This document shows positions 331 through 64,000 of a stretch of DNA of 64,000 bases, one piece after another. Made by a program: the position numbers and the translations under genes. Where the stretch lies: positions 115,568,001 to 115,632,000 of the forward strand of contig NC_090325.1 of assembly GCF_035084215.1 (NCBI RefSeq), in the 5' to 3' direction. The notes under the pieces were generated by a model, which saw only the letters and a program-made list of their open reading frames with translations, was not told the origin of the DNA and searched no databases. Every line of letters starts with the position of its first letter. Positions within the stretch are counted from its first letter, which is position 1. Source of the DNA: Heptranchias perlo. Its lineage: Eukaryota.

Positions 331-900
331 CGCCTTTAATGTAGTAAAACTTCCCACAGTGCCTCACAGGAGCGTTATCGAACAAAAATTGACAATGAGC
401 CACATAAAGAGATATTAGAGGCAAAATGCTGCAGATGCTGGAAATCTAAAGGGTCATCGACCTGAAACATTAACTGTTTCTTTCTCCATAGATGCTGCCT
501 GACTTGCTGAGTACTTCCAGCATTTTCTGTTCTTATTAAAAAGGTATTAGGACAGATGAACAAAGGCTTGGTTAAAGAGTTAGGTTTTAAGGAGCATCTT
601 AAAGGAGGAGAGACAGGAAAAGAGGCGGAGAGGTTTAGGAAGGGAATTCTGGAACTTAGGGCCTTGGGCAGCTGAAGGCCAATGCGGGGCGACAGAAGTC
701 AGGCATGTGCGAGGGGCCAGAATTGGAGGAGCGCAAAGATCTCGGAGGGTTGTAGGACTGGAGGAGGTTGCAGAGATAGGGAGGGGGGAGGCCATAGAGG
801 GATTTGAGCACAAGGATGAGAATTTTAAATTCAAGACGTTGCCAGACTGGGAGCCAATGTAGGTCAGCGAGCACAGGGGTGATGGGTGAACAGGATCTAA
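331..900 (-). mobile_element. L2-type LINE 3' fragment
   Basis: LADLHWLPVWQRLEFKILILVLKSLYGLPPPYLCNLLQSYNPPRSLRSS is a typical L2 ORF2 C-terminus. Confidence 0.85.
417..540 (+). mobile_element. Penelope-like family 2 short terminal remnant inside an L2
   Basis: GGTCATCGACCTGAAACATTAACT...GATGCTGCCTGACTTGCTGAGTACTTCCAGCATTTTCTG matches the reverse complement of 41230-41312. Confidence 0.7.
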
Positions 901-3973: not shown

Positions 3974-4069
3974 AAGGCCAGAGGGTTGTAAAGTGCCTCA
4001 TAGAAAGATGAGGGTCTGTTCCAAAAGGTGCCTAGACCAGTCATTGCATCCAACATGCATTCTTTTACT

Positions 4070-4164
4070 TCACCTTCACCTGACGAAGGAGAAAGCCTCC
4101 GCAAGCTTGTGATTTTCAAATAAAACTGTTGGGACTATAACCTGGTGTTGTAAGATTCCTTACA
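4070..4164 (+). mobile_element. Penelope-like family 1, short 3'-end copy A (hammerhead motif 4076-4112, GAAA mutated to GCAA)
   Basis: TCACCTGACGAAGGAGAAAGCCTCCGCAAGCTTGTGA...AATAAA...CCTTACA; near-identical to the 3' end of GIY-YIG-coding copies at 36038 and 42812. Confidence 0.85.
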
Positions 4165-4443
4165 TCTTACATTAGAGCTAAAAGTGGGATCTGATCATGG
4201 AGAACAGAGCCCTGGCTCCCGAGCTGTGGACTTTGATCTTAGGATCCTGCTCTAAAAAGGGCACTGAGGACCATCTTGGAGGACTCGAGAAAGGTGGCAA
4301 GGAACACAGCAGAGTCCAATGCCATCTTTTACACAAGCAACACTACCTGGAGCAAGTGGAGGCATCACAAACAACTGCATCTGTCTCTCCCTGACAAAGA
4401 GGTGCCCAGACCAGTCATTGCATCCAACATGCATTCTTTTACT

Positions 4444-4538
4444 TCACCTTCACCTGACGAAGGAGAAAGCCTCCGCAAGCTTGTGATTTTCAAATAAAAC
4501 TGTTGGGACTATATCCTGGTGTTGTAAGATTCCTTACA
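4444..4538 (+). mobile_element. Penelope-like family 1, short copy B (hammerhead motif 4450-4486, GCAA mutant)
   Basis: Same sequence as copy A; flanked by 9-bp direct repeat TCTTTTACT (4435-4443, 4539-4547). Confidence 0.87.
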
Positions 4539-16842: not shown

Positions 16843-17284
16843 ATATTCTGTCAAATTGTGTTGTCTAGTGTTTCACGTTGGGGAATTTTACTACACGTAC
16901 CTACATAAGGAATGTTGCGTTTGTAGTTTGAACATTGTGAATGAAAACACAGTTCGTAACCGGTTCTGGAGTAAAACCAAGTAACAACATTGGTTGTGCA
17001 CTATTACTATTTCTTGCTAGTGTTGATGAAATCCACATTCTTATTTTGTTAAACCGAAAAAACCACAGATTCTGAAACCAAAGTAGGAAAGGTTGTAAAA
17101 CAGGTTAGTCAGGATCTGTGGAGAAAGTATTCACCACACCTGGAACCTCGACGTGTCTATTCTGGAGTATCTCCAGCATTTTCTGTTTTTGTTCATAATT
17201 TGTTAATTGACTGCTGTCTTGCATTTGCCCACATTACAACAGTTTGAAAGTAATTAATTGGCTATGAAGTGTTACACCCAGTTA

Positions 17285-23734: not shown

Positions 23735-23945
23735 ATCCACAAATGCTGGAAATTTGAAAGAAAAGCAGAAAACTCTGGAACTGCAAAGCAAGTTGGTCAG
23801 TATTTGAAAGAGAAAGATCGCTTAACATTTCAGTTGGAATCCTTCATGAGAACCATTCTGATGAAGGGTCCTACTCACAACATTGACCTACCTTTCTCTT
23901 TCCAATGCTACTATGGTGTATTTTCAGCATTTTCTGTTGTCATAG
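23735..23945. mobile_element. Old inverted pair of Penelope family-2-like termini
   Basis: CAGAAAACTCTGGAA...TTCATGAGAAC / TTCTGATGAAGGGTC...TTCAGCATTTTCTG: degenerate head-to-head arms. Confidence 0.5.
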
Positions 23946-25249: not shown

Positions 25250-25417
25250 GCAGGTAATTGTGACTTTGGTTGATGGTGTAAAACGATATTGATTCAGCTG
25301 CCCGTTATACACCTCACCTGATTTTCATTTCAAATAAAAATTGAGAGAGGTGTGTAACAGGCAGCGGAATCGATAGCGCCTGTTTTACACTATCACCCAA
25401 ATTCAAAATTACCCCCC
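25250..25417. mobile_element. Palindromic MITE remnant
   Basis: GGTAATTGTGACTTTGGTTGATGGTGTAAAAC ... GTTTTACACTATCACCCAAATTCAAAATTACC inverted arms. Confidence 0.65.
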
Positions 25418-30283: not shown

Positions 30284-32699
30284 ATAACACACATAATCTG
30301 GGAGATGGTGGAGAGCTTCCACAAAGAGCGGGTCATTCTAAGATTGCTTCTGCCGTAAAAATGCAGCACTACTTCAGCTAAAGACGCAATTACAAAAAAC
30401 AAATTCTGTTCATTTTTACAAATGTCTTCAGTGTTAGGACAAGTGATGAGTTGCAATGCAACAACTCATAACAAATTCCATGAACTATTACACTTACCAC
30501 ATGTAGTGTGATTTGCTGCCCCACTAGCACAATTTTGCATAAAAACCTCCTGAGACCGTGAAAATGAATGTTTGTGAGCAGGTTTAACTGATAACAAATT
30601 ACTTTCCCAACTCATTGTCAATGATGTGGATAATTTGGAGCATGTGTGTGTGGAGGGGGCCCATTTTAGAACAACCACCAACAGTAGATGTCTTTGGGAA
30701 GGAAAGGATTTTTTTTTGAGATGGCTGGCAAGTTTTAAAATGACTCAGTCATGAAAGGGGGAGACAACAGCGGTGTCAGTGAAGCTGTTGCAATAGAAAA
30801 TAAACTCTGAACAATTTACAGCTGCCACCCGATCTCCTTGGTTACAGCCTTGAAATCAATGATGTATTATTTTGTAATACATAATATGGAATTTAAAAAG
30901 GAATGTTTTATTCAGTTTTGTAACTGACAGTCAATGTCATGAAACGGGAAGGAAACAACCAGTGAGATTTGTATTAAGCATGAAGGCCAAGGACCAAATT
31001 TAGGAATGCAGGCTCCCACAGGGGAGCTTGGTCCACCAGGAGCGCATATCTGGAAATCGAAGGTATGCTGCCTAAACTTTTATGACCATTAAAATTAGTG
31101 GACAGAAAATTGTGGGATGCATTGTCACACAATGGATGAAAAATTTTGGGGAATGTGGAAACGATTTCCCCACATATATTTCCAACAGGCTACAGTCCAC
31201 ACCAGGAATGTGATTTTGTAGAATTCGCCCTTCTGACTGAAGGACTGATCATAGAATCATAGAAAATCTACGGCACAGAAGGAGGCCATTCGGCCCATCG
31301 TGTCCGTGCCAACCGAAAATGAGCCACCCAGCCTAATCCCACTTTTCAGCACTTGGTCCGTAGCCTTGTAGGTCACGGCACTTCAGGTGCACAATAGAAT
31401 CATGATTATGATATGTGAAATGCAAGTTTAATGAGTGATAATTAATACTTAATTAGATCATATGGAATAATATTGTTATTCACGTGGGGGAAATACTGAA
31501 CTTGCATAGTGTTACAATCATTTATATTAAAATAATTTATGGCATTTAGAACACCTATGAAACTTATACCAGCACTATAAGGGTTTAGATGAGTCATCTT
31601 GTCTAACAATTGTATTTTCTTTTAGCTGGTCAAGTAGAAACGTTAGAAGGATCCTTATCAACTGGGCCAAGAAAACTTGTCCAAAGTTTGAGAAACCCCA
31701 AAAGGACTTGGATTTATATTACTCATTAAATGGTTACTTAATTTAAATGGTTACTTAATTGGATTTTATGGCAGTCAGAAAGTAATCATGTTAATTAACC
31801 ATGTTAAAACCAGATAGGCTGTTTGATTTTGTTATTATGACATCAGGTAGGGGCAGGACCTAAATAACAAAAGTTGGAATTTGCAATGCAATTTTAATTA
31901 TTCACTTATACTAAACATTCTCCACTTGTGCTTTGTTGTTTAACAATGCACTCAGATGTGAAGAACTTTTTTCCGACAACAGTGCAGGCAATTTCCATCC
32001 TTCATCAACTATCTAATGGCTACAGAAGAAAACAGTGGAGATTTTAGCGGTGCCAGGTTTATTAGCTACAAAGATTTGTATGGATCGTAGCAGGCAGAAG
32101 ACACTTTGACCTTTCCCAAGGACATTTGAATTGTCGCATCAAAGGAACAGATGGATCGATTACTCACTGTCCCTGGAAAATGCCAGAACTTCACTTGAAC
32201 TCATTTGTTTAACATTTTGAAGTTGCATATTTTGTTGTACCACTTTTATTGTACTCATTGTAATATTTTGCTTTTGCTATTAAGCAACTGGAGATAGTTT
32301 ATTTATGTGTCGTATAATGCCTTCAAGTGAACTGGCAGTTAATGGGAAACTTTTACAAGCGTCGTTGTGTATTTTTAACAGCGATAGTTTTTCTCTTCTT
32401 TGAGCATTGAGAACCACAATGTTTACACAAGAACCATTCAGGTTGAAAGTTGCAATATCAGCACAAATAATTAACCACATAAATCTTACGCCAATATTTC
32501 CCACACCTTATGCAGTTTGTGTACAGTACATTAATTCCTTTTATACTCACTGCTTTCGAGTTCCTTCGGCATCTGTTGTAAGTCAGCAACAAGCTGGAGG
32601 ATTCAACAGTTATCAAATCAGCCTGAAGGTAATAGTGAAATATCTAGAAGATAAAGAGCAGTTAGCTGCAGCTTTTGCAAGAGAGAGAGCGAGCGCTGG

Positions 32700-34644
32700 C
32701 AGGGAGCGGGGAATGCGTGCCCTGTGCCGGCGGGCGGGGAATGCGTGCCCTGTGCGGGCGGGGAGCGGGGAATGCGTGCGCTGTGCGGGCGGGGAGCGGG
32801 GAATGCGTGCCCTGTGCAGGCGGGCGGGGAGCGGGGAATGCGTACCCTGTGTGGGCGGGGAGCGGGGAATGCGTGCGCTGTGCGGGGAACGGGGAATGCG
32901 TGCCCTGTGCGGGCGGGGAGCGGGGAATGCGAGCCATGTGCGGGCGGGGAGCGGGGAATGCGTGCCCTGTGCGGGCGGGGAGCGGGAATGCGAGCCCTGT
33001 GCGGGCGGGCGGGGACTGCGAGCCCTGGGCGGGCGGGCGGGGACTGCGAGCCCTGTGCGGGCGGGCGGGGAGCGGGGACTGCGAGCCCTGTGCGGGCGGG
33101 GAGCGGGGAATGCGAGCCCTGTGCAGGCGGGCGGGGACTGCGAGCCCTGGGCGGGCGGGCGGGGAGCGGGGACTGCGAGCCCTGTGCGGGCGGGGAGCGG
33201 GGAATGCGAGCCCTGTGCGGGCGGGGAGCGGGGAATGCGAGCCCTGTGCGGGCGGGCGGGGAGCGGGGAATGCGAGCCCTGTGCGGGCGGGGAGCGGGGA
33301 ATGCGAGCCCTGTGCGGGCGGGCGGGCGGGGAGCGGGGAATGCGAGTCCTGTGCGGGCGGGCGGGCGGGGAGCGCGGAATGCGAGCCCTGTGCGGGCGGG
33401 CGGGGAGCGGGGAATGCGAGCCCTGTGTGGGCGGGGAGCGGGGAATGCGAGCCCTGTGCGGGCGGGCGGGGAATGCGAGCCCTGTGCGGGCGGGGAGCGG
33501 GGAATGCGAGCCCTGGGCGGGCGGGGAGCGGGGAATGCGAGCCCTGTGCGGGCGGGCGGGGAGCGGGGAATGCGAGCCCTGTGCGGGCGGGCGGGGAGCG
33601 GGGAATGCGAGCCCTGTGCGGGCGGGCGGGGAGCGGGGAATGCGAGCCCTGTGCGGGCGGGCGGGGAGCGCGGAATGCAAGCCCTGTGCGGGCGGGGAGC
33701 GGGGAATGCGAGCCCTGGGCGGGCGGGCGGGGAGCGGGGAATGCGAGCCCAGTGCGGGCGGGCGAGGAGTGCGGGCGGGCGGGGAGCGGGGACTGCGAGC
33801 CCTGGGCGGGCGGGTGGGGAGCGGGGAATGCGAGTCCTGTGCGGGCGGGGAGCGCGGAATGTGAGCCCTGTGCGGGCGGGGAGCGGGGAATGCGAGCCCC
33901 GGGCGGGCGGGGAGCGGGGAATGCGAGCCCCGGGCGGGCGGGGAGCGGGGAATGCGAGCCCCGGGCGGGGAGCGGGGAATGCGAGCCCCGGGCGGGCGGG
34001 GAGCGGGGAATGCGAGCCCCAGGCGGGGAGCGGGGAATGCGAGCCCTGTGCGGGCGGGCGGGCGGGGAGCGGGGAATGCGAGCCCTGTGCGGGCGGGCGG
34101 GGAGCGGGGAATGCGAGTCCTGTGCGGGCGGGCCGGCGGGGAGCGCGGAATGCGAGCACTGTGCGGGCGGGCGGGGAGCGGGGAATGCGAGCCCTGTGTG
34201 GGCGGGGAGCGGGGAATGCGAGCCCTGTGCGGGCGGGCGGGGAATGCGAGCCCTGTGCGGGCGGGGAGCGGGGAATGCGAGCCCTGTGCGGGCGGGCGGG
34301 GAGCGGGGAATGCGAGCCCTGGGCGGGCGGGCGGGGAGCGGGGAATGCGAGCCCAGTGCGGGCGGGCGAGGAGTGCGGGCGGGCGGGCGGGGAGCGGGGA
34401 ATGCGAGCCCAGTGCGGGCGGGCGGGGAGCGGGGAATGCGAGCCCTGGGCGGGGAGCGGGGAATGCGAGCCCTGTGCGGGCGGGCGGGGAGCGGGGAATG
34501 CGAGCCCTGGGCGGGGAGCGGGGAATGCGAGCCCTGGGCGGGCGGGGGGCGGGGGGCGGGGAGCGGGGAATGCGAGCCCTGTGCGGGCGGGCGGGGAGCG
34601 GGGAATGCGAGCCCTGGGCGGGCGGGCGGGCGGGGAGCGGGGAA
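32700..34644 (+). repeat. G-rich minisatellite, unit about 27-39 bp: (GCGG)n GGAGCGGGGAATGCGAGCCCTGT
   Basis: Directly visible tandem array of about 1.95 kb; extreme G skew; CpG-rich; abuts the KLHL8 first exon. Confidence 0.98.
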
Positions 34645-34879
34645 AGTCCCGCGCCGCAGACAGGCGGTCGGATCGCGGAGTCTGGGCTCCCCGGGATACC
34701 GAGCGCCCGGCCAACCCGGAAGTGTTCGCGGTGGTTCGGGCTGTGGTGAGCGAGGGGAAGCGATCGTGTGTTTGCGGAGAGAGTCAGGGAGCGGAGCGGA
34801 GAGGGGGAGGGAGCGGGGGAGGAGAGGGAGCTGCTGCTGCTCCTTCGGTTCGTGCCCTGAGTTGCCCGCTCTGCCCACC
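34641..34879 (+). promoter_or_regulatory. KLHL8 CpG-island core promoter / 5' UTR with NF-kB and ETS motifs
   Basis: GGAAAGTCCC (reverse complement GGGACTTTCC) at 34641-34650; CCGGAAGT at 34716-34723; GC boxes in the adjacent repeat; CpG-rich through about 35400. Confidence 0.65.
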
Positions 34880-34906
34880 ATGGCTCTGGAGACACAACAG
34901 AAAAAG
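34880..34906 (+). other. KLHL8: 3' end of KLHL8 first exon carrying an upstream AUG (MALETQQKK)
   Basis: CCCACCATGG Kozak context at 34880; AAG|GTAAGT consensus donor at 34907; the only CpG island upstream of KLHL8 coding exons. Confidence 0.7.
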
Positions 34907-36037
34907 GTAAGTCTGAGAATTTAAGGACTCTTTTTGGTTCCAGAGAAGTAGTTTTAAGTTCGGCTTTTTAAAAAAAATTCAACGAACAAACTCGAGCGTT
35001 GTATAATTTCTAACGAAATGCAACTTGACTAAATTGTAATTATTTTCGGCTTCAGGATTAGAGTTGGTTGATGTCTGCTAAATATTCATCTGAACAAAGA
35101 GTAAACTCGCAGGCTCTACACCTGAACTAGGGTCGGTTTTATTTTTGAACACATTTGTTTTGATATATTTTCAGTGCATGTGTTGTTTTTTGACGTGTTT
35201 TGTAAAGTGCCCACCTCCTCGGGGTTGGGGGGAAATGTTCCTTCTCCAATGACTTTTCCGACTGTTTGTATCAAGGCAGCATCGGACTTCAGTCATAGTC
35301 CTCGCTAATTAGGTAACGAACAGCGTGCGGAGCAATGTGGCGGGTCCATATGTTGTAAGGTTTTTTTTTCCCTCTATCAAATTGCCGAGCACACACACAC
35401 AACAAAGCTCATTGAACACGTTTGTTTCTACCGACGGTGTGATTCTTCCCACCAAGAAGAGTAACGAACAGGAAAGGCAAAATGATGCACTACTTTTTTG
35501 TAAGGTTATAAATCCCTCTACCTTCTCTTCGGTTCATCTGGCTTGTGCGGGTCACTAACCACTGGGAATCGAGAGGGCAGGCGACTGGTTTCAGGCCTTC
35601 CTCCAAACACTTCTTCAGAGAGCTGCTGATCTCTTAATGACTCTTGTCAACTTCCCGCCCGTATGGCCTCCGTACAGCACCTTGCCAAACATCAAGGGAC
35701 GTGGAGCACAGGCAGGTTGAGGATCAGCCATGATCTAATTGAATATTGGAACAGGCTCAAGGGGATGAATGGCCTACTCCTGTTCCTATGATGGGGGGGG
35801 GGGGGAGAGAATGTGGAACTCACCAACATAGGAGAATTAATCTTAGCTTATTTTTAAAGGGCACTGACTTAGTTACCACAGAGTGAGAATGGCCAGAAAA
35901 GATTGTGCTGGTAAAGGGATTTCTCCAGACAAAGCCTTAGTCTTATCACCTGCGACCAAAAGCTTTAATAGCGATTAGTGTTTTCTTTCCTGGTTTTGTA
36001 TTTAGTCTGGCCAAGGTACTTAGCCTATCCTGGGAGA

Positions 36038-39374: not shown

Positions 39375-41204
39375 AATATGTCTTTTAAAATAATGACCTC
39401 ACTTTTTTGGTTTCAGGAGCTGAGAGTCAGGAAGGTGCATTTTAAAAAAAAATTATAAAGCATGTTTCGCAAAGTAATTAGGGTCAGTAACCAGGAATCA
39501 AAAACTAGATTGTTGGCAGAACACACATTACCTGCCTTCATTTTCTGCCTTGACTGCAAGGTCATGCTCCATTTTGCATTGCAATCCCTATCAGCTCCTG
39601 ATCCATCTGCCTCAGTGTACACAGACACAGCAGCCTCTTTATTTTTCAACATGTTGGCTGTTTGATCCTTGCCTGTTTTGGCATTTGGTGCCAAAAAGTG
39701 ATGCATCACCAGCTACTCGAGGTGACATTTTCACGGTTTTATATAAAAGGGCTAACTGCTGTTCCCATGTTGTTGGAAAAATTAGACTAAGATATCACTG
39801 GCTACTTGTAGGGATTATTTTGTTCAGGGCTGCATAAATTGTGCACTCAGATTCCCAGTGCAAATAAAAATTTTCGTTGTCCTCATATTTTCTGGAGACA
39901 TCTCAGGAGCACCACCAGTTTCTAGTATATTCTGAAGCATTTTTCTTTCAGGTCGAGCTTGGATAGCCAATAGCTTTCAGTAGCTGTCTATAGTTTCTCT
40001 CATCCACAGTTCTCTCAATTTCCACTCCGGTTCATAAAACGATAAACATTTGCAGTCTGTTGTTACATCATAAGTTAAGCATTTCCTTAATAATGTCCAG
40101 GCCGGTGAATCGTTACTTTGTCTATCTCTCCTATCAAACTTTTATAGGGAGATACTTCATCTGTTACCATCACTTGGCATAGTGAGAAACCTCTAGTCTA
40201 GATACTGCAATTAATCAGCAAATTAGACTCGTACAGCTCTTTTTAAAAGGATACTGCTCTGGCACAGGCATGGCATTTTAACACTGTTAAATTAAGCTGC
40301 ACTCTGTGTACTTGTTTTCCTTTCTCCTGGTTCTTCCCTTAGGTCATTTAAAACAAAAAGGCAGCTGCACAGAACTTGGAAAGCATGTTCTCCCCAGTCC
40401 CCTTAAATCCCAGGAATTTTCAGTTCTGACGAAAATTCTTTTTCTTTTTACAGATAGTGACTAACCTGTGTATTTCCAGCATTTTCTGTTCCTGTTTTTG
40501 TTCCAGATTTCCAGCATTTGTGTTTTTTTACTTGAAGTGTAATACACCATTTAGTTATCTCCCAACACAAGCATGCCAATAAAATAATCATTCTCTTAAC
40601 AGACTTGCTAAAAGTCCTTTAACCTTATGCATGCACAAAATGTTTCTTAAAACTCTTGCTTGGGCAACCTTTTGTAAAACTCAACAGTCCATTTATAAAT
40701 TTCCATCTGGACCTTTGCTAGTGGAGAAATGCAGCCTATGGTTCTAAGTAATGTGAACTGTTTATGTGGCAAATAGAATCGGACCCAATGGTAAATGGAA
40801 GAATTTGGAATGATAGTAGTTCAGCAAAGGGGCCCCGGCGCTTCCAGGTTAATTTTCCTTTGTACAAGTGGGGATAGGGAATGAACTTAAAGTGTGTGGT
40901 AAACTTTAAAAAGGTGGAGTGTGGAAGTATTACATTCCTTTTTTACATCAGATGTAGACTTCATGTAGTCACTACGGTGTTAAGCACTGGGTGTAATTAT
41001 TTTCCACCATGGAAAACTTTGCAGTAAACCTTTGAGGTATAGCAGACCTTGCTTTTTGGAGTGGCTACTTCAGGTTCTTTTGCTCATTGAAGCCACTGCA
41101 ATCCTTTGCTACTGGTGTGACAAGGAATTGCCAAAAATTTGCAATAAATGACTTTCTAGGAGGAGTGAGATGTGGAAACCAATCACCGCTGGTACAATTG
41201 TCTG

Positions 41205-41965
41205 AACGCTGAAGCTGCTGGGAATCTAAAATAAAAACAAAGTTCTGGAAATACTCAGCTGATCAGGCAGCATCTATGGAGAGAGAAACAGATAACGTTT
41301 CAGGTCGATGACTTCATCAGAACTGGAAGAAGTAAAGATTTAACAGCTTTTGAGCAAGTTCAGAGCCTGGGAAAGGGTGGGAGGGTGGTGCGAAGGGGAG
41401 GAAAGGGTAGAAGGCAAGAGTGATTAAATGACAAAAGGGATGATGGTGCAAGGCAAAGTGGGTGGTAATGGACAAGTAAAGAAACAAAAGATGGATCTAG
41501 AGCTGTAAATGGCAACAGCAAAACCATTAACAGCACCTGCTGGCCGAAAAAATGGTTGCAGTGGTTATGACCTGAAGCTATTGAAATCAATGTTGAGTCT
41601 GGAAGGTTGTAAAGTGCCTAATCGAAAGATGAGGTGCTGTTCCTCAAGCCTCTGTCGCGCTTCATTGGAACAGTGTAAGAGGCTGAGGACAGAGGTCAGA
41701 GTGGGATGGAGAATTAAAATGGCAAGGGACAGGCAGGTCAGGATCACACTTGCAGACTGAACGGATGTGTTTGGTCTCCCCAATGTAGAGGAGATCGCAT
41801 CGTAAGCAGCGAATACAGTATGTTAAATTCAAAGAAGTACAAATAAATTGCTGTTTCACCTGGAAAGGAATGTTTGGGGCCTTGGATGGTGAGAAGGGAG
41901 GAGGTGAAAGGGCATGTGTTGAATCTTCTGCGCTCGCACAGGAAGGTGCTGTGGGAAGGAAACCG
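41205..41965 (-). mobile_element. Penelope-like family 2, decayed 3' part (GIY-YIG endonuclease + hammerhead remnant 41290-41324)
   Basis: Frameshifted ORFs give FICTSLNLTYCIRCLRCDLLYIGETK, CHFNSPSHS, RLEEQHLIFRLGTLQPSRLN, typical of PLE GIY-YIG domains. Confidence 0.88.
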
Positions 41966-42811
41966 AGTGTTAATTTGCCGTTGCTGTTTTATATGCAAAT
42001 TGTTCCCTTGATTGGTGTGTAATGAACAGGGTTGATATATATATGAACTTTAAAAGGCTTGATAAAGTACCATATAATAGACTTGTTAGCAAAATTAAAG
42101 CCCATGGGATTAAAGGGACAGTGGCAGCATGGATACAAAATTGCCTAGGGGACAGAAAGCAGAGAGTAGTGGTTGGTTGTTTTTCAGACTGGAGGGAAGG
42201 ATACAGTGGTGTTCCCCAGGGGTCAGTATTAGCACCATTGCTGTTTTTGATATATTAATGACCTGGACTTGAGTATAGAGGGTATAATTTCAAAGTTTCC
42301 AGATGAGACAAAATGCAGAAATGTAGTAAACAATGTGGAGGATAGTAACAGACTTCAGGAGGACATAGACAGACTGGTGAAATGGGCAGACACATGGCAG
42401 ATAAAATTTAATGCAGAGAAATGTGAAGTGATGCATTTTGATAGGAAGAATGAGGAGAGGCAATATAAACTAAATGGTACAATTTTAAAGGGGGTGCAGG
42501 AAAAGAGAGACCTGGGGGTGCACATACAAAAATATTTGAAGGTGGCAGGACAAGTTGAGAAGGCTATTAAAGAAGCATATAGGATCCTGGGCTTTGGTAA
42601 TAGAGGCGTAGAGTACAAAAGCAAGGAAGTTATGCTAAACCTTTATAAAACACTGGTTAGGCCTTAGCTGGAGTACTGTGTTCAATTCTGCGCACCACAC
42701 TTTAGGAAGGATGTCAAGGACTTAGCGAGGGTACAGAAGAGATTTACTAGAATGGTACCAGGGATGAGAGACTTCAGTTATATGGAGACGCTCGGGTTGT
42801 TCTCCTTAGTA

Positions 42812-43650
42812 TGTAAGGAATCTTACAACACCAGGTTATAGTCCAACTGTTTTATTTGAAAATCACAAGCTGTCGGAGGCTTTCTCCTTCGTCAGGTGAG
42901 TGTGGGATTCCATGGAAGGTTACCGCATTTATAGTCAGAGAACAATACCTGGTGATTACAGATAATCTTTCCAACTGCCCGTTGTCAAGGCAATCAAAGT
43001 GTTCAGACAGAGAGATGTTACCTACAGGACCACCGAATATTCAAACAGCCAGAACAAAAGACAGAGAGAGAGAGAAACATCCGAAAGGAAGAGAAAGGCA
43101 GAGAATGACCTGTTGTATTAAAAACAGATAACTTTTTTTCGCTGGTGGGGTTACGTGTAGTGTGACATGAACCCAAGATCCCGGTTGAGGCCGTCCTAAT
43201 GGGTGCGGAACTTGGCTATCAATTTCTGCTCGACGATTTTGCGTTGTGTGTCTCGAAGGCCGCCTTGGAGTACGCTTACCCGAAGATCGGTGGCTGAATA
43301 CCCTTGACTGCTGAAGTGTTCCCCAACTGGGAGGGAACCCTCCTGTCTGGCGATTGTTCAACCGGGATCTTGGGTTTGTATATTCGGTGGTCCTGTAGGT
43401 AACATCTCTCTGTCTGAACACTTTGATTGCCTTGACAACGGGCAGTTGGAAAGATTATCTGTAATCACCAGGTATTGTTCTCTGACTATAAATGCGGTAA
43501 CCTTCCATGGAATCCCACACTCACCTGACGAAGGAGAAAGCCTCCGAAAGCTTGTGATTTTCAAATAAAACAGTTGGACTATAACCTGGTATTGTAAGAT
43601 TCCTTACATTTGTCAACCCCAGTCCATCACTGGCATCTCCACATCATGGC
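42812..43650. mobile_element. Penelope-like family 1, inverted composite copy E, inserted in a CR1
   Basis: Left arm (-) 42812-43357 encodes TIARQEGSLPVGEHFSSQGYSATDLRVSVLQGGLRDT...GLNRDLGF; right arm (+) 43358-43608 plus 42-bp tail; TSD TCCTTAGTA at 42803-42811 and 43651-43659. Confidence 0.92.
43521..43557 (+). ncRNA. Minimal Type I hammerhead ribozyme motif, intact core
   Basis: TCAC CTGACGA A GGAG AAAGC CTCC GAAA GC TT GTGA. Confidence 0.78.
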
Positions 43651-45109: not shown

Positions 45110-45639
45110 ACATTTCCAGTCTTAATTTCTAAAAGACAACATCAGCTACCTGAAGGAAGAACAGTTTTTATTGCAGACAATATTTATTACAGTTTATATA
45201 TTGCAATTGAAATAACAATGTAGTAAATCCAATGATCTCACAGATCCCTGATGGATTCCCTTGGATCTGGAAACCCCAGTTTCAAAACTTGATTTTAGAG
45301 GATGATTACAGCATATAAAATATTTTTTTGGAATATTGAGTGCACCTAATGAAACAAATGTCACTGCTATCAAATCATTTAAAAAATAACCCACATTATT
45401 TGTTGTTAATATAAAAACTAGGAGCTTGTATTCTGTGTTTTTTTCAGCTAGGATTCAGCTAACAGATACAGCATAGTGTTGATGTGGGAATGAGTTTGTG
45501 AAATTACTAATTAATTGGTGTTGTTTTTACCCAGGAAGGAATACATTTGCAGATACTACCGAGATGTTTGATCCACAAAGGGTAATGTTTTGAAGATCTC
45601 AATTAGGTACTTACAGCGGAAAGCATAATATTTGAAGAA

Positions 45640-45837
45640 ATGGCTTCAGGTGATATGATTCCAGAACATTTGAAGCATCATCAACTAAAGAACAGGAAGC
45701 TTCCCAATAGGTCCTTTGACCGTGACATCGAAGCAGATGGTTGTTTTCTTTTTGAAGCAGATGAAGCTTGGAAGGAATATCACCATGCTCTCTATCAGTT
45801 CTATGAAGCCAAAGAACTATGTGATGTAACATTGAAG
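45640..45837 (+). CDS. KLHL8: Kelch-like protein 8, first coding exon (exon probably starts 45535)
   Basis: MASGD...FLFEADEAWKEYHHALYQFYEAKELCDVTLK resembles the KLHL8 N-terminus/BTB start; acceptor TTTTTACCCAG ends 45534; donor GTGAGA at 45838. Confidence 0.93.
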
Positions 45838-48258
45838 GTGAGAGGAATACCAGTCCCCCTGTCTTTGAGCATTTATCCTACACTCTCATTTCTCTCATCA
45901 AAATACTCACTCCTGAAGGCATGTGATAGAAAGTAAATTAGCATATGAAAATTGATCATAATATCAAGTTTGTCCTCGTTAGGAGACTTTTTTGATTAAA
46001 CAGTCATTTAGAGCAAAGGATTAAGTTATTTTGTTTTTTGGGGCTGACTGTCAGAGGGATTCACTTAACAAGAACATACGTTGACGAGTGTATAAAATGC
46101 TGAGCAGTAGGGATGCTCCAGTGTCTTAATGCACTAGTGTGACTCAAACATTTCTGAATTCTTGCTCATCCGAAGCAAGATTTGTAGCAGTTGCACTTCA
46201 TTGTTGTGTTTAAATCCTTCTAGATTACTAGTGGCAGAATTTTATACACTACTTTTGCTGCTTACGGAACTCTTCCTGGTGGTGTCATCACCTATCCCTT
46301 GTATGTAAAAGTGTTGGCAACTATGCCATCACTTGCTTAGTCAGGATTTTTGGAGCATGTTTTGACACAGGGAAATTTCTGACTTGCATGTTGGATTCTT
46401 GAAAACCACCAGAGTTAATTCTCTGACACATCTGTCGTTAATACACTTGCCTCTGAGTCTATTTAATTGTTTGGCCAACAAAGCCAAACAGAGTTATATT
46501 CCAGGTTGTGGGTCACTGGGTCTTGCACTGAGCTTAGCCAGGGAAAAGCTCGTGTAAGCACATACACAAAGCTCTGATCCCTGGCCCATAAATTTTTTAT
46601 GTTTTGAGAGAATGGACAACAGCATCCACATTCTCATCATAGCATTGAAAGGACTCTACAGTAAGTTTTATAAAGTGACCAGGCTGTCCAACATGCGACC
46701 TGAGTTATACTACACCTGGTGCAAAGCTAGAGAGCTGTGAAGCCACCTACTGGAGGTGGTTTTACCACTTGGCCAAAATGTGCTTGCAAGTCAGAATACC
46801 AGTTATGTTCCTGATTTTGTTAATACCTCTTTGCAGAAACTCACTTGAAGTATAAAGGCAGTCTAAATATCCTCTGAACAGCCTTTATTCGAATAATATA
46901 GGCAATTGTCCCAGTGACAGCTAACAATAAATTTTTACTTGGCCTGCTGTATTTTTGCATGTCCCAAACAGGGTAGTAGGTGGTTAGCCTAGTCCCTGTC
47001 AGAAATATATTGGAGATTCTTTAGTGCTTGCAGATTGTATTAGATTTTCTGGTCACTAACACATAAATAACTGTTAATGTGGTTAACTGATCAATGTTCA
47101 GGCCATAATGGTGTTTAAAGATCTACTATTTTTTTTAAAAATTGGAATAAGCGTTAATAAATAACCATTTTATTTATTACCTTTCAATTCAAATGTTTGT
47201 TTTTTTTAAAAAAATACTTAGTGTAGAAACCCAGTTTGCTCAAGTAGCTATACAATGCCAACAAGCCTAGTTTGTTTTCAAAATTGTGAGTGTTGTTGAA
47301 AAACATTGAATTATGCATAATTACTACAGTATTATCTTTGCCATTAGCTGGTTTAGGGAAAGTACTGATAAATTAGTACATTGCTAAAAAATAAAAAAAT
47401 TGGTGTGGTAGTAAAATTGTACAGTTGCATAACAGATTCCTGTGAGTTTTGAGGTGCTAAAATCCTCCCCACTGCTAATCTTCTAGTGAAGAGAGAGTGA
47501 AATATTCTTTTGAGAGGTCTTCTGTGAAATAATCGGGCTACTACAAGTAATAACGGTAATGGCTCTCATTATATTAGCATACATTAAATGTGTCACACTG
47601 GACCACTTGTTATTTCTCACTTACTGTTTAGGGAGGACACGTGCTGATCCCAGCAATAATCTCACTGGATGGCTTGTAACTGGCATACTGCAAGTGAACT
47701 GCAAATTACTAGCTTTCCAACCTAGAGATTAGCTGTTTCTGATATCATTAATAATGGATCAACTTAATTCTAATAAGGTTTTTTTAAGTTTTCCCATTCC
47801 TTTCTTCAAGTAATAGCAGTAATTGCCTATATTGTGTGTCATCACAAATCACAGTCACTCAACTTTTGGTGTTGCTAGTAATCTCTGCCTTGTAAATGTT
47901 AATTTTTGCATTTGTTTTGTATAATGAATAAAATTATTAGAATTAATGTTTTGACTTTTGAGGAGCTAGATTTCCCACCTTATGTGTTAATGTATTTTGT
48001 TCACGTACAAATCAATTTATATGATTAGTTATAGTCAAAACTGCAAAATCAGTTAGTTGATCAGAAACATTCAAAATATTCATGTTAACCTGTTAGAAGT
48101 ATACTTTGCCGTTCACTGCATATTGTGGTTTTGTAAGGGAAGTAATCTGTTGTAGCTAAAATTCCCAGTTTGTGAATACACTCAAAGCCCCCACTGGATT
48201 TAGCTCAATTTTAAAATGAGTTACTAAAGTGATATTCTATGCTCCCTTTTCCCAACAG

Positions 48259-48807
48259 GTTGGGCCCAAGTTAATCCCATGCCACAAATTGGTGCTAGCG
48301 TGTGTGATTCCATACTTCAGAGCAATGTTTCTTTCTGAAATGGCTGAAGCCAAGCAGGACCTGATAGAGATTAAAGATTTTGATGGCGATGCAATGGATG
48401 ACCTTATCAAGTTTGCTTATTGCTCCAGGATTACACTTACTGTAGACAACGTGCAACCTCTTCTCTATGCAGCTTGCATTCTGCAGGTAGAGCTTGTGGC
48501 CAAGGCATGCTGTGAATACATGAAAGCCCATTTTCACCCATCAAACTGCTTAGCAGTCCGGTCGTTTGCTGAGAGTCACAACCGGGTTGACTTGATGGGC
48601 ATGGCTGATAAGTATGCCTGTGAACATTTTAATGAAGTAGTAGAATGTGAAGACTTTGTCAATGTTTCACCGAAGCACCTCATTGCACTCCTTTCATCCA
48701 GCGATTTGAATGTGGAAAAAGAAAAGCAAGTGTATAATGCTGCTATGAAGTGGCTACACACAAATCCACATCATCACACCAAGTGGTTGGATCAAGTTGT
48801 TGCTCAG
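48259..48807 (+). CDS. KLHL8: KLHL8 exon, BTB and BACK domains
   Basis: VGPKLIPCHKLVLACVIPYFRAMFLSEMAEAKQ...WLDQVVAQ; 549 nt, phase 0-0, AG/GT boundaries. Confidence 0.97.
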
Positions 48808-51631
48808 GTAGGTTGACACTAATTTTTAGCTGGCGATTGGAGATTTAGTTGGAAGTTGCAGATAACTCCTTTTGGTTCAAGAGGTTTAATTACTTTTTTT
48901 TAAGGTGGAATGAAGAGTTATTAACTTATTGCACTGTAGATCAATCTTCAGGGCCATTGTGGCATACTGTAAACATTATTGGATGCAATGGATTTTAGTG
49001 CTGTAGATAAAGTCTTTTAGGTGATTTCTGATCACTGTTGCTCGACATGGTTCTATTTTTAAAATGAGAAGCTTAATGAACAGGTGTACACTAGCAGCAT
49101 GTGGAGGATCTCAATTGAGGAGGTAAGAGTTATATTGCAGTTAATTAAAAGGCTAGACAGACAGATGAGTAACAAAATTGCAAGGGTGCTATAATCTGTA
49201 TCTAGGCCATTGCTACTCCGATGAAGTCTAGTTTACTGGTGGTCCTGTCTCTCCCGGATGCCCTTGCCTCCTGTATATGCTTGACTCCTTTTGGTCACGG
49301 TTTGTTTTACCTTTCATCCATGTCTGTTCATTGTAAATGTAATTACTGGACGACCAGGCGTGGTGCTACTAACTGATTGTGACTTTGATTCACAGGCTTG
49401 ACTTTGCATTTGCTTTGCCTTTAGAGAGTTTAGAGAAACTCGCTGGTTTCCAATAGGACATTAAGACCCTGAAATTCCTGTTGGGGACACTGCAGCTGTG
49501 TAAACCAGGCGGAAGGGTTGGAATTCGGGGCAGGACATGTTTCCGACAGGTCGCCGCCTCTTTTTTGCACGTCATAAAATTCCAACGGAAGTGGGGGCAG
49601 GCGTGGTTGAGGTCCTCCCCATGCTGATATCAGAAAAGGAGGTGAGATTGACAGGATGGTGTCACCCACCATAAATCCCACCAGTCATGCTTCCTTTGCC
49701 CTGAAAGCAAAGTATTGCTAGGATATCACACCACCAGGATACCTGGTGGAAGTGGAACTCACAACGTCATTAGGAAAGTGTGAACAGAAAAATACCACCT
49801 TTTTCATTTTTATATAAAAAATATCCTGAATCTTCAGCTAGAATGGCCCAGCCTCCATTCCCCAACCCTCCCCCCCCCCCCCTTCCCCCCAGCAGAGTGG
49901 AAAGGTACCACCCTGAAGCCTAGGAAGCACCATGGTGCATCCGCCTGCTCCCGTTATGGAGTTTGGGACAGGGTCAAGAATGGGATAGACTGGCGGCTGG
50001 AAGTCCTGCCATCGCCCCCCCTGTCCACACTTCCACCAGCAAAATAGGTAGCCAGGAATTTCGGGCCTTAAAATTACAACCCGGATATGTTCTTTTCACG
50101 CAGTTTTATTTCAAATCACAGAATTGTCTACAGTGGTGCTAGATAGAGTTATCCTGGACAATGAAAATAGAATACATGCATGATAGACTGTAGCACTATG
50201 ATGCTTTTCCCTCCACACAGCACACATTGCTTTCCAAGCATGCAAAGGAATCTAATTTTTTTTTCAAAAAGCAGAACTGTGAAGACCCAAAATAAATTGG
50301 CAAGACAATTTTATCAAAAGCATCCATTTGTTTCACAATTCTTTTTAGGAGATTGCCTACCAACTCTGAGGCACTAAGCTTTTACTCTTGACATTCAAAT
50401 CATGACTATTCTGCAACAGGATTTTAAGTCATCCATCTAGCAGTTGATGTGTAACTCTTTATTTCAGCTCTGTGTGAAAGGATTCATCAGTTTGAAATTC
50501 TTTTGTGCTAAGCAAAAAAATTTGAATGTTGTTCATATTGCCATTCATGCCCTGTCTCTAATGTGCACATCTACTTGAATTAAAAAGGTTGCCACACAGT
50601 TATAGTATTTGATGCCAGCAGTAAGCTGAACAATGTAACTGTGTCATTTTGTTTTATACGACAGAGGATTCTGTTAACTGAATTTATGTCATGCTGGCTT
50701 CTAGGTTAAAAAAATGAATATTCAGTTTCTCTGATGTGATCTTAAAGTATGCTTACTTGAATCGTTTAATAGGTTTATAGTTGAAATTTTGCACTTAGTT
50801 TTTACACATCTGTTTTGATCCTTGTTTCTTTAGTAGGAGAGAGTAAATTCAGGTGAGGCTATCTTCCCGGAGCGGAGCCATGCTAGATTGGAGTGCGAGT
50901 TGCAGATGGGGCAAACCATGCAATCTTGGTACAATGCTAGCAGGACTGCTCCTGTTAGGATGTTGTGCACACCTGAAGTGCAATGAGCTGACCTTGTGTC
51001 ATATTGTGAGGTCAGATCTCACATTCTTGGTGCATAGTCCATTATGCTGTGGGAACACACCAGGGTTGAGGGGCCGGGTATCTGATGCCAGCAACTAGTC
51101 GCCTTTTGAGCTATGTTATTATTGAAGGTGGTTAAAATGGCGGAGTACGGACATACGCCTCATTCAATTAAGGAGCTTTTGAAGCAGAGGTCGTCCTTCA
51201 GTCAAGAAGAGCCTAGATGGAGATGGCTGAAACAGTGACTATTGTCTCGGCTCTGCCCTGAACCTGTGAGCAGGAAGAATGCACAGTGCTCTGGCAACTA
51301 TTCACATACTTTACAAAAGCACAAGCCCATCCATGTTTCACCAAGGCACTCTATCGCAGACACATCGATGCACTAATTAATTCTATAAATCAACGTTTTA
51401 ATGGGGAACGTGGTCCTGGCAGGACAGGCAGCGAGAAGCTTACCAGTACCCTGTGCTGTTCAGGTTCAGCTAATTAAACATTAGCAATAACCATGTGCAT
51501 AGTTGGGCACACAAGGTGGAGGTCCCTAATCCTTAGCCATCCTGCATCTTAGTCTCTGAACTTGGGTAAGTGGCATATGTCTATACATGGAGATAATGTG
51601 CACCCCACATCGGGCAGACAGAAACTACCTG

Positions 51632-56195: not shown

Positions 56196-57235
56196 ATAGT
56201 CCAGGCTGACACTTCAGTGCAGTACTAAGGGAGTGCTGCCTTTCGGGTGAGATGTTAAACCGCGGCCCCGTCTACCCTCTCAGGTGGACGTAAAAGATCC
56301 CATGACACTATTTGAAGAAGAGCATGGGAGTTCTCCCCACTGTCCTGGACAATATTTATCCCTCAACTAACTAACAATTAGGCTTAAAAGAAAAACAATT
56401 ATGAAAATATTCTAATGAAATTCTGCATAACTGCCTTTGTAGCAGTGGGAGGATTAAAAAAAATCCAACTTAAACACAGATGTAAAGTAAAAGGAAACTA
56501 AACAAGAGAACATAAATAAGATAGTCACTAATAAATCCAATAGGGAATTCAGGAGAAACTTCTTTACCCAGAGAGTGGTAAGAATGTGGAACGTGCTACC
56601 TCAAGGAGTGGTTGAGGTGAATATCATAGATGCATTTAAGGGGAAGCTTGATAAGCACACTAAGGTGAAAGGAATAGAAGGATATGCCGATAGGGTTAGA
56701 TGAAGTAGGGAGGGAGGAGGCTCATGTGAAGCATAAATGCCAGCATAGACCAGTTGGGCCAAATGGCCTGTTTCTATGCTGTAGACTCGATTATAAGATT
56801 AAAAAGCTGAAATTTAAACACTGAAAATCTAAAATAACAGAAAATGCTGGAAGTACAAAGCAGTCAGCCAGCATCTGAAAGCTAAATTAACATTGATTGG
56901 GACCCTTTTACAGGGCTAACAGTTCTCTTTTTTATATAAAGCATGAAGGTTCTCGGATGACAGCTTCCACAATGCCGCCATTTTGACCCTTCAACAATTA
57001 CACAGCTTGAAAGACAACCAGCTGCTGGCACCAGATAATCTCAACTAACACCATTAAAACAGATCATCTGGTCATTATCACATTGCTGTTTGTGGGAGCT
57101 TGCTGTGTGCAAATTGGCTGCCGCATTTCCTACAATACAACAGTGACTACACTTCAAAAGTACTTCATTGGTTGTAAAGCGCTTTGGGACATCCTGAGGT
57201 TGTGAAAGGCACTTATAAATGCAAGTCTTTCTTTT
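56196..57235 (+). mobile_element. DeuSINE split by a 668-bp insertion (56372-57039)
   Basis: SINE 5' half ends CTCAACTAAC (56362-56371); 3' half restarts CTCAACTAAC (57040-57049). Confidence 0.85.
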
Positions 57236-59429: not shown

Positions 59430-60326
59430 CCTTTATGCTTTATAAAAAGAGAACTGTTAGCCCTGTTAAAGGATCCCAATCAATGTTAATTTCTCTTTCA
59501 GATGCTGGCCGACTGCTTTGTACTTCCAACATTTTCTGTTATTTTAGATTTTCAGTATTTAAAGTTCTGCTTTTTATCTTCATTTTACTTTACATTTGTG
59601 TTTGGATTTTTTTTTAATCTGCCCACTGCTACAAAGGCAGTTATGTAGAATTTCATTAGAATATTTTCATAATTTTCTTTTCTTTTGTTGATGATGCCAA
59701 ATCAAGCTGGAGCATAGGATTCCTTTTGACTATTTTCAGAAAGAGGGAAATCCGTTGTACCTTTTGCAATTTTACAAAAGAATTCTTTTTGGTTTCTGCA
59801 GCTCCATACAAAATCTACTTGTGATTTAAATGGATCACCATTCATTCAAAATCCAAACGCAAAGAGTGGTAGAAGTTTGGAACATTCTTCCGCAAACGTT
59901 AGTTGATGTTGGCTTAATTGTTAATTTTAAATCTGAGATTGATAGATTTTTGTTAACCAAAGGTATTAAGGGATATGGGGTTAAGACGGGTATATGGGGT
60001 TAGGTCGCATTTCAGCCATGATCTCGTTGAATGGCGGAACAGGCTCAATGGGCTAAATGGCCTACTCCCGTTCCTATGGAAGGAAAACTGAATTAAAAAC
60101 AGTTGCAGTTGCAACAGCTGCACAAACTTGTACCAATTTGGAAGTAATATAACCTAATAGTGCTTTGTCATATTGTCAATGTCACACACCTTTCACACAT
60201 TGAATTACTTTTGAAGTGTAGTAACTGTTGTTATGTAGGCGAGCATAGATTGAAATACTTTAACAACTATATGAACAAAGAGAAATATGCAGATAAAAAT
60301 TATAAACTTCTGTGCTTTGCTGACAG

Positions 60327-63310: not shown

Positions 63311-63701
63311 ATTCTACCACGACTACAACAACTGTAAGGTGTCTTAACACCACCTTTAATGTGGGAATCGTGAACACAACGTGGGTTGGAAGGCAAACAT
63401 CTAAATTTGCAAGTTTTCTGTTTATTGGTGCTTCACTAGCTTAAAAAAAAGTTCCAGCCTGGCTATGCATTAATGTACATCAAACTAAGATAGTCCCAGG
63501 AGGAATTTTGGGAGCAAAAGCAAAAATTAGCAAGCACCTCTTTAATGCTAACCTACAGAATTACTGCACTTTCGGCAAATGTCAAATTGTAAAGCATGGA
63601 GGAATTTTACTCCCTTGGTGTCAAACACGTTTCAGACTCAAATGCCAAGTCATGATATTACAGCTGTTCAGAGTGATTCGCATGGCAGCAAGTGAAACTG
63701 C

Positions 63702-63775
63702 AATATTTTACTATATCTTTAACACGTTTACTGTATCATGATACAGTAAACGTGTTAAAGATATAGTGAAATATT
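63702..63775. repeat. Spacerless palindrome (perfect over 63710-63767)
   Basis: ACTATATCTTTAACACGTTTACTGTATCA|TGATACAGTAAACGTGTTAAAGATATAGT, checked base by base. Confidence 0.95.
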
Positions 63776-64000
63776 CAGAAATTCAGGAAATTATAGGTTC
63801 TGATGAAAGAAAAGTCCTTTCCATCAGGATTGTATTCTGTTTTGCCCTTTCACATTTGTTTTAAAACAGACTTTTTCTGCAAAATTATAATTTGGGGTTT
63901 TTGGGTTTCACAATTTAAATTTCTTCAGTTGCACCGTATGTGTTCACATGCCTCCTGATGGACAGGCTTCTAGTGCTGGAGAATGAAATAATTTAACATT

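Follow-up and report, generated by a model that had tools for sequence, protein, structure and literature searches.

A relic of a minimal hammerhead ribozyme in a truncated Penelope-like element of Heptranchias perlo, and Harbinger-type insertions at the predicted cut site of its family

The motif analysed here has its closest described relatives in the minimal hammerhead ribozymes of Penelope-like elements (PLEs), with which, to go by the available text of PMC4209133, it shares a CUGANGA/GAAA core, an extra nucleotide after position 9, a short helix I, the lack of any real helix III and a palindrome at positions 15.2-16.2. As here, several families are found per genome, which differ by compensatory changes and consist mostly of single truncated copies. 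That source already states covariation across several families, the extra nucleotide as well as the palindrome, and it also reports a low activity and a requirement for dimers. It gives about 4,000 matches for the coelacanth and about 9,000 for Xenopus, as compared with about 94,000 pattern matches here, the descriptors being different; the words 'shark' and 'Callorhinchus' are absent from its supplementary text, as far as this was searched. Family 2, to which our copy belongs, departs from these ribozymes in having A10.1-U11.1 as its majority closing pair of stem II.

The element PAc of Anolis carolinensis (PMC11167929, in part) is alike in its pLTR hammerhead, its tail lying between two 3' ends and its tandem pLTR-ORF arrangement. 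Its ORF starts in stem II, whereas ours begins about 170 nt further downstream, and PAc belongs to the Poseidon clade, whereas both families considered here carry the CX2-5CxxC linker that is attributed to Neptune and Nematis (PMC8557442, in part). The same work on PAc reports that cleavage is assisted by protein, that uncut RNA is the dominant template and that the tail reflects two starts of reverse transcription. The EN+ PLEs Neptune and Nematis resemble ours in their C-terminal GIY-YIG domain, Zn-finger linker, pLTR, inverted 5'-truncated partner and tail, and the Naiad PLEs thrive without canonical hammerheads (PMC8557442, in part). Non-LTR retrozymes (bioRxiv 10.64898/2026.07.22.740005, in part) likewise have type-I hammerheads and kinship with PLEs and are present in a cartilaginous fish; they are tandem, non-coding units, whereas our copy is dispersed and joined to an endonuclease remnant.

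The window that we analysed is a stretch of 64,000 nt (H. perlo, contig NC_090325.1, positions 115,568,001 to 115,632,000). In an initial annotation, a Penelope-type hammerhead had been placed at 41290-41324 (minus) and a related remnant at 448-475 (plus). The bases quoted for both read as given, and the motif is, as was stated, a Penelope-type minimal hammerhead with the geometry of family 1. It lies about 240 nt past the stop of the broken endonuclease frame, in a 5'-truncated element made up of a broken C-terminal endonuclease region, the 3' UTR/pLTR, the hammerhead and the tail (Table 1). The CUGANGA and GAAA...UH core is exact. The stems, which had been taken as fully compensated, are damaged: in an alignment of 38 rows, made with the 37 homologs of highest score, no row but the window copy has lost 2 nt from the 5' strand of stem II, the 3' strand of its stem I reads ATCT instead of AACT, and it folds as an unrelated hairpin (z +0.41). 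As the helices of this copy are broken and those of the family majority are paired, the window copy is a relic of a decayed minimal hammerhead, of a kind already described in 2014 (PMC4209133, in part), and its family is a member of the PLE minimal hammerheads. An Rfam scan of the window, taken up to an E of 5, gave no match to a hammerhead family; minimal motifs have no helix III. Pfam has no match for the endonuclease fragment of the window; the homologous stretch of locus L266 matches GIY-YIG at E 6.8e-4, which stays under the curated cut-off. The putative TATA-like box is 2 bases off the TTAAAAA-type heptamer of the family.

Table 1. Hammerhead-related features of the window, numbered from its first nucleotide.
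Feature	Position	Strand	Basis or remark
Truncated family-2 Penelope-like element	41209..41971	minus	blastn, 75-81% identity over about 760 nt with RT-anchored family-2 loci
Remnant of linker and GIY-YIG endonuclease frame	41565..41971	minus	translation broken by stops and frameshifts
Position of TATA-like box, decayed	41347..41353	minus	33 nt upstream of core
Stem I, 5' strand	41321..41324	minus	sequence
CUGANGA core and extra A between positions 9 and 10.1	41313..41320	minus	sequence
Stem II and 3-nt loop	41302..41312	minus	alignment; 2 nt missing from 5' strand
GAAA, ACGT palindrome, U16.1, U17	41294..41301	minus	predicted cleavage after 41294
Stem I, 3' strand	41290..41293	minus	broken in the window copy
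Optional PLE tail past the short 3' end	41209..41229	minus	two family 3' ends about 35 nt apart
Family-2 inversion stub	425..537	both arms	inverted tail arm 425-450 (minus); plus arm 448-537, starting at stem II
Two older-type termini of family 2 in inverted orientation, their hammerheads degenerate	23744..23943	inverted pair	nhmmer E 1.4e-10 and 8.8e-6
Family-2 terminus with stem I 5' strand and CUGANGA, remaining motif deleted	40418..40516	plus	nhmmer E 6e-10
Two weakly matching family-2 tails in inverted orientation, core absent	17070..17193	inverted pair	nhmmer E about 0.001
Family-1 hammerhead, comparator	43521..43557	plus	4-bp stem I, 4 paired stem II positions, AGCT palindrome

The plus-strand remnant is the junction of an inversion: it has neither the CUGANGA nor the 5' strand of stem I, its palindrome has decayed to ACAT, and the A's with which it begins are shared with the inverted arm of the tail. 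The structure first proposed was pieced together from these two broken copies, yet it comes close to the family majority. The three further degenerate termini that had been listed are all present, that at 17070 as tails only. Other old family-2 tails are seen at 56821-56893 (minus) and 59482-59556 (plus), within a 133-nt inverted duplication. A young insertion of family 1 occupies 42811-43609; its arms, of 236 nt and 99% complementary, flank a fragment of the endonuclease.

The majority structure of family 2 was derived from copies that were not picked on the motif. From 55 tail-anchored matches in 1.52 Mb of unselected stretches, 30 were kept (score at least 44), three older-type rows were set aside and 22 matches from 25 RT-anchored loci were added; 34 of the resulting 52 copies span the motif. 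Stem I, of 4 bp, stem II and the palindrome all occur in their consensus, as had been anticipated, along with C at N7, the extra A between 9 and 10.1, a CG centre in the 15.2-16.2 palindrome, which reads ACGT, and U17. Stem II is not the GGTC/GACC helix initially read but one of 5 bp, AGGTC/GACCT, with a 3-nt loop. Its closing pair 10.1-11.1 is A-U in 25 copies and G-U in 5 of the 34, and A-U in about 93 of 100 among the genome matches listed (G at 10.1 in 7 of 100); G10.1-C11.1, which is described as highly conserved yet falls outside the descriptor and is thus typical of PLE minimal hammerheads rather than defining for them, is not the pair of the majority. When an intact natural copy (L270:2803-2839) is folded, its lowest-energy structure (z -1.7) keeps the 5-bp stem II, but stem I does not form, the core being paired to the palindrome in its place. 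In this copy, which has C at N7, the 5-bp alternative helix between core and palindrome is the lowest-energy monomer fold, possibly a built-in off state.

The inserted copies are under no detectable selection and decay neutrally, as motif and flanks diverge alike: with CpG and diagnostic columns excluded, 40 of 938 ribozyme positions differ (4.3%), as against 110 of 2236 in the flanks (4.9%; Fisher p 0.46). Genomic copies as such do not, after insertion, bear out the selection that had been read from them. Frequent second alleles inside the motif are found at N7, in loop II and at CpG sites only, and 8 of the 34 copies are intact.

The motif was rightly held not to be a chance match. The core+spacer+S-S-T-T pattern occurs 94,078 times in the genome (3.25 Gb, rich in LINE fragments), as compared with 182 times for its reversed control; these are pattern matches, of which the stems are not part, and not counts of intact ribozymes. 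In 0.94 Mb of unselected stretches, the 14-nt spacer is present in 60 of 100 core matches, as against 1 of 30 in the control. As both controls are far exceeded, chance is excluded. The 3' half of the family-2 motif has 12,378 exact matches in the genome. About 94,000 motifs in many subfamilies amount to a natural mutation scan and to a record of reverse transcription stops.

Families 1 and 2, which had been presented as unrelated, are kin in their proteins, their natural ORFs being 30-34% identical across 238-439 residues (E 1e-36 to 1e-51); it is their pLTR DNA that has no above-chance similarity, and cannot be aligned, outside the motif. Family copies have the YxDD of the RT followed by a downstream endonuclease motif, as in one-ORF elements with RT and GIY-YIG. 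A CX4CxxC linker is common to both families (by regular expression in family 1, by eye in the alignments of family 2) and falls within the CX2-5CxxC pattern of Neptune and Nematis; a CCHH motif is seen by eye. To judge from these domain and linker features, both families encode proteins of Neptune/Nematis type.

The motif sits in the pLTR and is non-coding: two tandem pLTR-ORF copies (L270, L271) have it about 170 nt ahead of the point where the ORF begins, and in 3' repeats it lies past the ORF stop. Coding constraint on the motif is rejected, as the ORF begins downstream and a short upstream frame stops after 26 codons, and so is a splice acceptor with an ATG 20 nt past the cut site as the start of the ORF. 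As a separate observation, each of two pyrimidine tracts on the minus strand ends in CAG and looks like a splice acceptor: 41321-41335, where stem I begins, and 41273-41293, some 20 nt past the cut site. In D. virilis an intron is reported to end at helix I (PMC4209133, in part).

Selection on RNA structure had been argued from covariation within the window, where every helix was said to differ between the two families. A change on both sides is indeed seen in eight of the nine pairs, the families having the remaining G-C pair in common, and 97% of the cells are paired. This difference is one contrast and no covariation test; that the fold has been selected in active lineages nevertheless holds, on other evidence. 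Among 10 recurrent haplotypes of family 1, three pairs have double changes, and the covariation score, which relatedness inflates, is reached in 2 of 500 shuffles; taken as a count, pairs with double changes do not exceed the shuffles (218/500). These haplotypes are 89% paired, as compared with 25-50% for slid controls; in 3 of the 10, the fifth pair of stem II, next to the loop, is open. None of the four recurrent changed states of stem I breaks pairing, as against 8 of 13 singletons, and in stem II 4 of 6 recurrent states pair.

In family 2, the genome counts at 10.1-11.1 are 32 for G-C, 122 for A-C and 8,943 for R-U. Within the younger type there is no covariation at this pair, 8 G-C being observed and 7.5 expected under independence. 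As 23 or 24 of the 32 G-C matches belong to an older type with a 4-bp stem II, the sequences indicate that the lineage switched its closing pair from G-C to A-U between the older and the younger type. Together with the pair-preserving changes of family 1, this switch argues for selection on RNA structure in the active lineages. Compensation is visible only between subfamilies, not among inserted copies.

The 5' ends of family 2 were mapped on 53 copies, chosen without regard to upstream length and with two older-type rows set aside; 21 of them reach at least 60 nt upstream. Ten of 30 younger-type breakpoints between -59 and +16 fall within -7..-1 (p 2e-4, for an interval chosen post hoc), and short copies tend to start within the opening bases of stem I, roughly 30 nt downstream of the TATA-like box. 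Of 58 family-2 copies, 33 have a TTAAAAA-type heptamer, placed at -31 to -34, and the TATA boxes of family 1 lie mostly at -36 to -42. Contigs from four runs of one sample, whose RNA status is a guess, have, among the rows shown, 5' ends loosely placed at -4 to -2, as well as 3' ends at each of the two termini; all of these are junctions of passenger copies and uninformative on expression.

The best explanation, with a probability of roughly 80%, is that a truncated PLE carries in its pLTR a minimal hammerhead of type I, now decayed, the ancestral fold of which was likely selected and the cleavage of which is predicted to depend on a dimer or on a protein. To cut after U17, its active ancestors would have to pair as dimers through the palindrome or to be helped by the protein of the element. 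The clustering of 5' ends, the TATA-like boxes and the internal start of reverse transcription within the tail (PMC11167929, in part) suggest that transcription would start at the first bases of stem I, some 30 nt below the box, a TATA-based reading that is not general since the internal promoter of D. virilis Penelope has no TATA (PMC2377424). Reverse transcription, primed in the tail, would mostly copy uncut RNA up to its 5' end and leave short stubs. Cleavage, when it occurred, would strip the capped first 33 nt, and because of this removal the motif could be an off-switch or a processing step rather than a signal defining the template. One tentative possibility, with the odds against it, is that the first-transcribed hammerhead is a concentration-sensing self-decapping switch, in which a dimer or the ORF protein cuts the cap off, and that the same palindrome is a shared landing pad for Harbinger elements. 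The genome set points to a motif that stands at the 5' end of the RNA and is copied uncut.

The model proposed in PMC4209133 (available text), in which hammerhead cleavage defines the template of reverse transcription with its 5' end at the cut site, seems to us unlikely. Single junctions at the cut site do exist (L220), and 5 of 60 family-1 junction rows begin at N1.1, but the neighbouring positions have 4, 2, 2 and 5 rows (by eye), which is no clear pile-up in these 60 rows, even if a small, 2- to 3-fold excess is possible. The 60 rows are what is left of 100 after 40 from a subfamily 1 nt shorter were dropped; an initial mapping of family-1 5' ends, confounded by subfamily-specific upstream sequence, is excluded from these counts. 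Moreover, the uncut motif is kept in nearly all copies, and mutations of the core left insertion in vitro unchanged (PMC11167929, in part).

No more probable is the idea that the family-2 motif is a non-catalytic relic, retained as a promoter, protein-binding or dimerisation element, in which the A-U closure marks lost catalysis. Speaking against catalysis are this A-U closure of stem II in place of the conserved G-C, H17 being U, and the competing fold. In the standard numbering, hammerheads with U17 cleave more slowly than those with C17. The motif also overlaps the likely start site, where constraint could act at the level of DNA. On the other side, the invariant core positions are all kept in both families, 10 of the 15 invariant columns falling in the core, the change at 10.1-11.1 is compensated, and Fig. 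S3 (PMC4209133, in part) also has A-U at this pair for Latimeria (2) and for D. willistoni.

Besides the clustering of 5' ends, our analysis adds to the known picture that many unrelated DNA transposons, of at least 13 groups, have inserted precisely at the cut site predicted for family 2. In the 1.52 Mb of unselected stretches, 4 family-2 sites are split at one base, 27 are intact and 20 end otherwise, a split share of 4/31 (95% interval 4-30%). Genome-wide, the left-junction pattern has 341 rows, as against 0 for its control; 4 of 30 fetched rows being duplicates, these correspond to about 300 sites, or 2-3% of exact sites, as a lower bound, and the split share of family-2 sites lies between 2% and roughly 13%. 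The duplicated triplet, G16.2-U16.1-U17 (41294-41296 in the window copy), is a hotspot for Harbinger-type insertions; by eye, no credible recurrent junction was found at other pLTR positions of the sample. Like PIF/Harbinger elements, the inserts have TIRs and a 3-bp target duplication. An element of the same TIR type outside hammerheads (L190) matches DDE_Tnp_4 (E 7.9e-37) and Myb_DNA-bind_5 (E 3.4e-10), that is, a transposase and a Myb-like protein; four ORF fragments of the L089 insert have no Pfam match.

The element Harbinger3_DR (PMC3016246, in part) also makes a 3-bp duplication within a loose palindromic target of 15-17 bp; it differs in that here the ribozyme motif of a retrotransposon provides tens of thousands of matching sites. 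The target derived from 12 elements, one of which itself sits in a hammerhead site, is a loose palindrome, which the site fits at 6 of 7 positions per side. The hotspot is thus likely coincidental, the site happening to match the Harbinger target palindrome. It is very improbable that Harbinger elements target Penelope hammerheads specifically, or that a single composite copy was amplified. About 300 junctions against none in the control, and 4 interrupted against 27 intact sites, would suit either, but by their first 400 nt the 26 distinct loci sort into 13 sequence groups, which argues against one amplified composite, and for one TIR type 0 of 100 ends lie in the site among the matches listed (by eye). 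The hotspot is a clean example of one element family providing the target sites of another. It also carries a practical warning: a copy split by Harbinger looks as if it started 3-4 nt ahead of the cut site, and could be mistaken for a footprint of cleavage. The literature that we searched, which did not extend to subscription papers and Repbase, holds no description of Harbinger insertions in PLE hammerheads and no paper on shark PLE hammerheads.

The left target duplication of Harbinger-split copies is ATT in 23 of 29, while uninterrupted sites read GTT in 34 of 40 and ATT in 6. A preference of Harbinger for the decayed ATT triplet is unsupported, as three elements (L062, L161, L173) have ATT on the left and GTT on the right. 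Candidate causes of the left ATT are CpG deamination in a single-stranded gap, or stronger methylation beside the insert.

That the window copy is a ribozyme exapted by the host, or a chance match, can practically be dismissed: its exact core is still present, but both its stems are damaged, its strand is opposite to that of the nearby BTB-BACK gene, and chance is excluded by the reversed-pattern and spacer controls.

Exon-like frames of this BTB-BACK (kelch-like) gene lie at 45607-45936 and 48220-48816 (plus), the second being confirmed by Pfam. At 32660-34920 there is a GC-rich minisatellite with units of 24-39 nt, adjoining a GC-rich stretch that is possibly a promoter island. Long hairpins at 25256-25409 and 63699-63778, with weak matches to miRNA models far under the gathering scores, are likely MITEs or fold-backs. 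Finally, stubs of family 1 often open with the first 4-6 bases of stem I repeated in short runs, as slippage at an RNA 5' end would leave them; examples are found in the window at 4060-4085 and 4440-4460 and at loci L237, L209 and L085.
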